From Escherichia coli (lineage in GTDB: Bacteria; Pseudomonadota; Gammaproteobacteria; Enterobacterales; Enterobacteriaceae): a stretch of DNA of 64,000 nt. This document shows, in pieces, positions 35,300 through 37,865 of the stretch. The stretch lies in assembly GCF_045037415.1 (NCBI RefSeq), contig NZ_CP173438.1; one strand, 5' to 3'. The notes under the pieces were generated by a model. That model had not been told where the DNA came from and searched no databases. It saw nothing but the letters and a program-made list of their open reading frames with translations. The position numbers and the translations under genes are program-made. The first letter of the stretch is position 1. Each line of letters begins with the position of its first letter.

Positions 35300-36124
35300 A
35301 TGGTCGCACCCATTCCCGCAAAACGCGGCAGAAAACCCGCCGTTGCCACCGCACCAGCGACTGGACAGGTTCAGTCTTTAACGCGTGGCCTGAAATTACT
35401 GGAGTGGATTGCCGAATCCAATGGCAGTGTGGCACTCACGGAACTGGCACAGCAAGCCGGGTTACCCAATTCCACGACCCACCGCCTGCTAACCACGATG
35501 CAGCAACAGGGCTTTGTCCGTCAGGTCGGCGAACTGGGTCACTGGGCGATCGGCGCACACGCCTTTATGGTCGGCAGCAGCTTTCTCCAGAGCCGTAATT
35601 TGTTAGCGATTGTTCACCCTATCCTGCGCAATCTAATGGAAGAGTCTGGCGAAACGGTCAATATGGCGGTGCTTGATCAAAGCAATCACGAAGCGATTAT
35701 TATCGACCAGGTACAGTGTACTCACCTGATGCGAATGTCCGCGCCTATCGGCGGTAAATTGCCGATGCACGCTTCCGGTGCGGGTAAAGCCTTTCTGGCC
35801 CAACTGAGCGAAGAACAGGTGACGAAGTTACTGCACCGCAAAGGGTTACATGCCTATACCCACGCAACGCTGGTGTCTCCTGTGCATTTAAAAGAAGATC
35901 TCGCCCAAACGCGCAAACGGGGTTATTCATTTGACGATGAGGAACATGCGCTGGGGCTGCGTTGCCTTGCAGCGTGTATTTTCGATGAGCACCGCGAACC
36001 GTTTGCCGCAATTTCAATTTCCGGACCGATTTCACGTATTACCGATGACCGCGTGACCGAGTTTGGCGCGATGGTGATTAAAGCGGCGAAGGAAGTGACG
36101 CTGGCATACGGTGGAATACGCTGA
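35300..36124 (+). CDS. iclR: IclR, repressor of the glyoxylate bypass operon
   Basis: 274 aa MVAPIPAKRGRKPAVATAPATGQVQSLTRGLKLLEWIAESNG... Confidence 0.95.
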   Translation: MVAPIPAKRGRKPAVATAPATGQVQSLTRGLKLLEWIAESNGSVALTELAQQAGLPNSTTHRLLTTMQQQGFVRQVGELGHWAIGAHAFMVGSSFLQSRNLLAIVHPILRNLMEESGETVNMAVLDQSNHEAIIIDQVQCTHLMRMSAPIGGKLPMHASGAGKAFLAQLSEEQVTKLLHRKGLHAYTHATLVSPVHLKEDLAQTRKRGYSFDDEEHALGLRCLAACIFDEHREPFAAISISGPISRITDDRVTEFGAMVIKAAKEVTLAYGGIR

Positions 36125-36140
36125 CTTTTTCGCCTCTGAT

Positions 36141-37865
36141 TTATACGAATCGAACGCTAAACCGCTGCCTGCGCCGATACGCATAAACATCTTCCACATG
36201 CCCTTCACGTATACGGTTTTGTAGTGCGCGCCAGTAATCAGCGCGGAACAAGTCGGCGTGCATCTCTTCAAATAGCGGACCAATACGCGGGTCGGCACAT
36301 AACCAGTGACGGAACTCTTCCGGGAAAACATCGCCCGGCGAGACGCTGTACCACGGTTCGCTGGCAAGTTCGTCCTCCGGGTAGCGCGGCGGCGGGATGT
36401 CGCGGAAGTTCACTTCCGTCATGTAGCAAATTTCATCGTAATCATAAAACACCACACGCCCGTGACGGGTGACACCGAAGTTTTTAAACAGCATGTCGCC
36501 AGGGAAAATGTTAGCAGCGGCAAGCTGGCGAATAGCGTTACCGTATTCTTCAATGGCATCGCGCAACTGCTGACCTTCCACTTGTTCCAGCCAGATATTG
36601 AGCGGCACCATCCGCCGCTCAATATAAAGATGGCGAATCACAATTTGTTCGCCGAGATCGGTGATTTTTTCCGCTGCTTCCTGGAGCAGTAATGCCATTA
36701 ATGCCGGGGAAATATGCCGCTTCTCCAGCACAAAGTTTTCAAACTCCTGGGTGTCCGCCATTCGGCCCACGCGATCGTGCTCTTTCACCAGTTGGTAGCA
36801 GGCGCGAACGTGAGCGGCAGACATCTCTTTCTGCGGCGCGAACTTGTCTTTGATCACTTTAAATACCCGGTCAAAGCCCGGCAGCGTGAACACCAACATC
36901 ACCATTCCACGAATACCCGGCGCTTCAATGAACTGCTCATTACAGCCCTGTAGATAAACGAGATATTCGCGGTAGCTTTCGGTTTTGGCGTGCTTCTGGC
37001 AGCCGATAGCCATATACAATTCAGCGGTGGTTTTACCTGGCAGAATTTCCCGTAGCCACTCGACCAGCGCTGCGGGCAGCGGCGCGTAAACCATAAAATA
37101 AGAACGCGCAAAGCCAAAGACGATGCTCGCTTCGGCGGTCGTCGTCAGACAGGTATCAATAAATAACTCGCCGTCGTCCGTCTGGTGGATCGGCAGCAAA
37201 AATGGCAATGTGCCGGAAGGCGTGATCAGTTTGCCCACCAGCCAGGCGGCTTTATTGCGGTAAAACAGTTCGTTCGCCACCTGTAAATGACTTTCCGCGA
37301 GGTTGTCTGTCCCCAGCGTTTCCGTTAGATGGCGAACGATGTAATGAATGTCACGGCTTTTATTCTGCCAGCGCAGACGCAACGGCAGGTCGCTGATAAC
37401 GCGCATCAGCAGAGATTCCCAGCCGTGATCGGGGTGAAAGTCTTTCGCCAGCGGGCGGGGAATGGTACGAAAACGGCGCTCTGGCTGGGAGCTAAAGATA
37501 AAAAGCCGCTCGGGAGTAAGCGAGCGGTGGTCAAATAACCGACAGTACACGGAGTTAAAAAAGCTCTCCGCAATCTCGAAGCGCGGGTAATCCGGCAACA
37601 GTCGGGTGTAATGCTCTTTAACGCGCAGTAAAAATGCCGCGTCCGTGCTTTGGCCGTTAGTAATGCAGCGCAGTTGCTCCACAACCAGACCCACGTGATG
37701 ATCGTAAAGATGGATACGGTTTTTCATCGCTTGCTGGACAGCGTGCCAGTCGGCTTGTTCGAAACGCTGCTGCGCCCCGGAAGTCACTTCGAGGAATCGA
37801 CCATACTGAGCGTCGAAGCCTTGCAGAATGGTTTGTGCAATCAGTAATTCCAGGCCACGCGGCAT
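36141..37865 (-). CDS. aceK: isocitrate dehydrogenase kinase/phosphatase
   Basis: 574 aa [27 protein letters not shown]...; ends ...[11 protein letters not shown], a few residues shorter than I recall for K-12. Confidence 0.95.

Follow-up and report, generated by a model that had tools for sequence, protein, structure and literature searches.

The arpA marker of the Clermont 2013 quadruplex is an aceK-arpA fragment of 400 bp, amplified with primers AceK.f and ArpA1.r, and queries exactly the locus considered here. In the published primer table and key (PMC4322292), with the markers in the order arpA, chuA, yjaA and TspE4.C2, phylogroup B2 is scored as (- + + +) or (- + + -) and phylogroup F as (- + - -), in agreement with the statement in the initial annotation of this DNA that absence of arpA marks B2 and F. 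In K-12 the gene occupies 4220301..4222487, between aceK and iclR as that annotation had stated (aceK-arpA-iclR, b4016-b4018), and is transcribed in the same direction as iclR with an overlap of 32 bp with the 3' end of aceK. The K-12 ArpA protein matches Pfam PF07906 (ShET2 N-terminal domain, 1.3e-96) together with Ank_2 ankyrin repeats, places the gene in the ShET2/EspL/OspD family of type III effectors (PF07906 plus ankyrin repeats), and is named in RefSeq either EspL4 or 'ShET2/EspL2 family type III effector'; no NCBIfam model matching it was found.

The gene varies even among genomes that are counted as carrying it. In about half of these (roughly 2100 of 4106) K-12 arpA (positions 10302-12488 of the K-12 region L001) aligns in two pieces covering 71% of its length, with an internal gap of approximately 612 bp, and this version is annotated in RefSeq as 'ShET2/EspL2 family effector toxin' and not as EspL4.

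The window analysed here, a stretch of 64,000 nucleotides from Escherichia coli, displays the arpA-negative state known for phylogroups B2 and F and does not depart from it in any respect. The features relevant to the junction and to typing are as follows, in window coordinates.

35300..36124, plus strand: iclR, 274 aa, with its TGA stop at 36122-36124, from the sequence and the open reading frame list (NCBIfam NF008601 equivalog, 2.4e-171)
36109..36130, plus strand: weak terminator-like motif overlapping the iclR 3' end, from a consensus scan, with a 5-bp stem CGGTG/CGCTG (36109-36123) followed by CTTTTTC (a run of five T)
36125..36140: 16-bp spacer between the convergent iclR and aceK stops, CTTTTTCGCCTCTGAT, corresponding by homology to a spacer of 15 bp in E. 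albertii
36132..36145: 14-bp 'empty site', GCCTCTGATTTATA, exchanged for the arpA segment of ~2.48 kb in arpA-positive E. coli (blastn breakpoints 36131/36151, refined by eye on a five-way alignment)
36140..36159, plus strand: position equivalent to the K-12 ArpA1.r site, with 8 of 20 bases mismatched
36141..37865, minus strand: aceK, isocitrate dehydrogenase kinase/phosphatase, 574 aa, with its TAA stop read 36143..36141 (NCBIfam NF002804 equivalog, 1.2e-283)
36520..36539, minus strand: AceK.f primer site, exact match
42787..43170, minus strand: yjaA, from annotation mapped onto the window and primer matches

The genes flanking the junction and their order (metH, iclR, aceK, aceA, aceB, metA, yjaB, yjaA, rrnE) are those of K-12, and the flanking DNA is 96-97% identical between the two. 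IclR, the repressor of the glyoxylate bypass operon, differs from its K-12 counterpart by two residues (D129N and M273I), and AceK shows only a few substitutions outside its tail. The difference lies at the junction itself, where K-12 carries an additional ~2.48 kb made up of arpA, 316 bp of AT-rich DNA upstream of this gene and a hairpin after iclR. Homology to K-12 ends on the iclR side at window position 36131, 7 bp beyond the iclR stop, and restarts on the aceK side at 36151 according to blastn, or at about 36146 in the five-way junction alignment. By blastn, K-12 has 2486 bp here that are unmatched in the window; fixed anchors lie 90 bp apart in the window versus 2557 bp in K-12 and in O157:H7. 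The initial annotation had described iclR and aceK as convergent genes only 16 bp apart with arpA missing between them, and had asked for the aceK 3' end to be aligned with K-12; both descriptions hold, and in that alignment the two genes are not equally close in K-12. Searches of the whole 64-kb window by blastn and tblastn with K-12 arpA and ArpA as queries returned no arpA (best E-value about 4-5), and no member of the ShET2/EspL/OspD family is encoded in the window. In K-12, unlike the window, aceK and arpA overlap convergently and AceK is 578 aa long, ending in ...RFSVRYGEMLF* as against ...RFSVRFV* in the 574-aa protein of the window, which is thus four residues shorter, as the initial annotation had suspected.

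The aceA-aceK intergenic region (37866-37989) is 124 bp long compared to 182 bp in K-12, and the alignment shows one fewer REP-like palindromic unit of ~58 bp; copies of the same family occur in the window at about 1686, 4413, 8638 and 16498. The gap between yjbB and metH (30412-31420) amounts to ~1 kb at 34% GC compared to only ~190 bp in K-12, and contains an open reading frame for a hydrophobic protein of 149 aa (30546..30995, minus strand) and a frameshifted one, for both of which ST131 genomes carry the annotation 'hypothetical'; it is a further small lineage-specific insertion beside the aceK/iclR gene cluster. Between pepE and rluF, at ~21870-27583 (coordinates mapped from the AVS0578 annotation), the window holds a sorbose utilisation/PTS operon with sorE, mannose-family PTS components IIA-IID, an SDR oxidoreductase and a regulator, which is not known from K-12.

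The polarity of the difference between the two arrangements can be addressed by comparison with E. albertii and more distant genera. Our outgroup set consists of species-representative genomes with AceK (80 loci listed, including E. albertii, Citrobacter, Salmonella enterica subsp. arizonae and diarizonae, Klebsiella, Enterobacter, Kluyvera, Buttiauxella and Cedecea; E. fergusonii and the cryptic clades fall outside the set). None of the 80 Enterobacteriaceae loci listed contains an ArpA homolog (tblastn, 1e-5), and, among the loci listed, each of the 77 with both genes has aceK next to iclR in convergent orientation, separated by gaps of 1 to ~1700 bp. E. albertii NBRC 107761 resembles the window closely, with convergent genes, an AceK of 574 aa ending in QRFSVRFV*, a homologous spacer that is one T shorter (15 versus 16 bp) with a few substitutions, and no arpA. 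In the five-way alignment its junction is collinear with that of the window base for base. We therefore propose, with a probability of about 0.88, that the window holds the ancestral, uninterrupted aceK-iclR arrangement on a phylogroup B2 (ST131-type) chromosome, and that the arpA-positive form results from an old insertion. Judged from these alignments, the longer AceK tail of K-12 is the derived form.

The opposite polarity is implied by the initial annotation, which took the 16-bp spacer and the shorter, altered AceK tail as consistent with a junction at the aceK 3' end; on that account the ancestor possessed arpA, which was deleted in B2, F and G, leaving a scar. Homology to K-12 does break at the aceK 3' end, so that part of the claim stands, but the deletion that it implied does not, as E. 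albertii has the same uninterrupted junction. Prevalence speaks for a deletion, since about three quarters of complete genomes carry arpA, and so does phylogenetic breadth, as the gene is reported from clade I and all E. coli groups other than B2 and F (PMC10525238). However, a loss would need to have recreated the ancestral sequence to the base, AceK C-terminus and spacer included; it would have left no remnant of arpA in the window; and it would have removed a segment of foreign base composition (32-40% GC in the K-12 insert, compared to 52-59% in its flanks) whose gene, arpA, is found in none of the listed outgroup loci. With a window collinear with E. albertii and free of arpA remnants, the junction does not qualify as a deletion scar, and we consider this explanation improbable.

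Under the preferred reading, that of an old insertion into an empty site, the structure of both forms can be accounted for by a short series of steps. In the ancestral state aceBAK and iclR would have faced each other with their 3' ends 16 bp apart, an arrangement shared with E. albertii and, with short spacers of varying length, with the Enterobacteriaceae at large. A single old insertion would then have carried the gene for ArpA (EspL4) into most other E. coli lineages on ~2.48 kb of foreign, AT-rich DNA, taking away the last 5 nt of aceK including its stop codon. The replaced 14 bp (36132..36145) contain that stop together with two nucleotides of the final aceK codon, and AceK in arpA-positive strains consequently reads into the insert and would in this way have gained the tail YGEMLF*. 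By the same step, the strand opposite the former aceK end would have come to encode the end of ArpA; in arpA-positive strains the final four codons and stop of arpA (CAT ACC GTA CGC TAA) do coincide with the antisense strand of the stretch that corresponds by homology to the ancestral aceK end. Both ends of the K-12 insert were examined for target-site duplications and terminal inverted repeats, which would suggest a transposon or an integrase, but showed only short repeats at chance level.

We surveyed the junction in 5426 complete E. coli genomes from RefSeq. A contiguous iclR-aceK junction is present in 1314 and arpA in 4106, in nearly all cases at one place; a 140-bp probe over the K-12 aceK/arpA junction matches at full length in 4106 of the 5426, and one over the iclR/insert junction in 4112. 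The arpA-positive and contiguous-junction sets are near-perfectly complementary, summing to 5420 of 5426, which argues against arpA residing elsewhere in arpA-negative genomes. The insert boundaries are identical in K-12 (group A) and O157:H7 (group E) in the five-way alignment, and they are the same in about 4106 of 5426 genomes, consistent with one event. The junction of the window does not differ from the most divergent one seen among arpA-negative E. coli in the collection.

How the inserted allele came to be distributed among lineages is a separate question. A literature search on the origin of arpA yielded typing papers only. According to PMC10525238, which paraphrases Clermont 2013, cryptic clade I is arpA-positive, and should this clade fall outside E. 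coli proper, then a simple model of one gain after the split of B2 and F fails, and either spread of arpA by recombination or re-acquisition of the empty allele is needed. The authors of ClermonTyping have suggested horizontal transfer of arpA alleles among phylogroups (PMC6113867; PMC7656184), and the inserted allele may have spread by recombination instead of through a single clean gain on the tree. We infer that the lineage of the window never had arpA, as opposed to having regained an empty allele by recombination. Whatever the population history of arpA, the allele in the window is the un-inserted form.

The same geometry explains the behaviour of the typing primers. ArpA1.r (TCTCCCCATACCGTACGCTA) spans the insertion boundary: its 5' TCTCCC corresponds to inserted DNA and its 3' CATACCGTACGCTA to the homologue of the ancestral aceK end, and the assay is therefore a junction PCR and not a test of the arpA gene body. 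The window contains no ArpA1.r site at up to three mismatches, nor at up to four, the best site having eight; at the position equivalent to the K-12 site these mismatches arise from the 5' portion of the primer, which was designed on a stretch that belongs to the insert. Hence AceK.f, although it matches exactly in the window, gives no 400-bp product there with ArpA1.r, whereas the K-12 control does.

The initial annotation had also located yjaA at 42787..43170 and read the combination of missing arpA and present yjaA as pointing to B2. The gene is where it was placed, and in silico PCR gives the expected 211-bp product (42901..43111) from exact matches of yjaA.1b at 43092-43111 and yjaA.2b at 42901-42920, as also in the K-12 control. 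An in silico primer search showed that chuA and TspE4.C2 are absent from the 64-kb window. The genome of AVS0578 (NZ_CP124374.1) has no mismatch to window positions 20128-55128 over 35,001 bp, and in this genome both chuA primers match exactly, giving a product of 288 bp. In addition, the 24 kb from 26000 to 50000 are 100% identical to dozens of complete genomes, including records titled O25b:H4-ST131; JJ2434, MNCRE44, ZH193 and CD306, which are among them, we take to be ST131 strains. By comparison, the junction is only about 97% identical to those of UTI89 and E2348/69. ST131 is a clone of phylogroup B2. The window thus types as arpA-negative and, taken with yjaA and, indirectly, with chuA as read in AVS0578, assignment to an ST131-type B2 chromosome is supported by the primer matches and sequence identities, in line with the earlier reading.

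An arpA-negative chromosome could in principle come from phylogroups F or G, or from cryptic clade I/II, since missing arpA alone fails to separate B2 from these, and two of the other markers, chuA and TspE4.C2, lie outside the window. However, the positive yjaA PCR excludes the F profile (- + - -), the clade I/II profile (- - + -) is excluded by chuA, which has exact primer matches in a genome that agrees with the window throughout 35 kb, and 24 kb are 100% identical to genomes labelled O25b:H4-ST131; assignment outside B2 is therefore highly improbable. An assembly or collapse artefact that lost arpA, for which we found nothing beyond the report that IS insertions in this region upset in silico arpA typing (PMC6113867), deserves next to no credence, as iclR and aceK are both intact open reading frames and the identical junction occurs in the 1314 complete RefSeq genomes and in E. 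albertii.

The close spacing of the two genes raises the question of how their transcripts end. The statement in the initial annotation that there is no hairpin between the stops is essentially right: the only terminator-like feature at the junction is the motif at 36109..36130, with its weak stem, and it is no better than expected by chance. Four RNA folds over the junction did not stand out from shuffled sequences, with z-scores of -0.3 to -1.7. The transcripts of iclR and aceBAK probably end through Rho or weak signals, or by mutual read-through.

In K-12 the insert begins with a clean hairpin, GGGCAGA-N8-TCTGCCC, directly after the shared CTTTTTC (positions 12760-12800 of L001, past the iclR stop). 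The K-12 insertion has in this way provided iclR with a stem-loop, which the ancestral junction of B2 does not have.

It is conceivable, but in our view unlikely, that in B2 the gene for the iclR repressor and its target aceBAK, converging over 16 bp with no real terminator, read into one another and are coupled through antisense transcription, and that the arpA insertion, by placing its own hairpin behind iclR and 2.5 kb between the genes, would have abolished this coupling in other phylogroups. If this were true, B2, F and G could regulate the glyoxylate shunt in a systematically different way from the remaining groups, and the two AceK tails (RFV* versus RYGEMLF*) could add to that difference.

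The arpA-free aceK-iclR junction is already a textbook typing marker, and its presence here implies no new biology. What is added by our comparison is its polarity, as an ancestral empty site and not a deletion, and the assignment of the window to an ST131-type B2 chromosome. The arpA PCR would accordingly report an old insertion junction, and 'arpA absence' the ancestral state with no gene loss. As the PCR targets an insertion junction, point changes or IS insertions there cause mistyping. Its placement in B2/ST131, the main multidrug-resistant clone of extraintestinal pathogenic E. coli, provides a context in which the rest of the window may be read.
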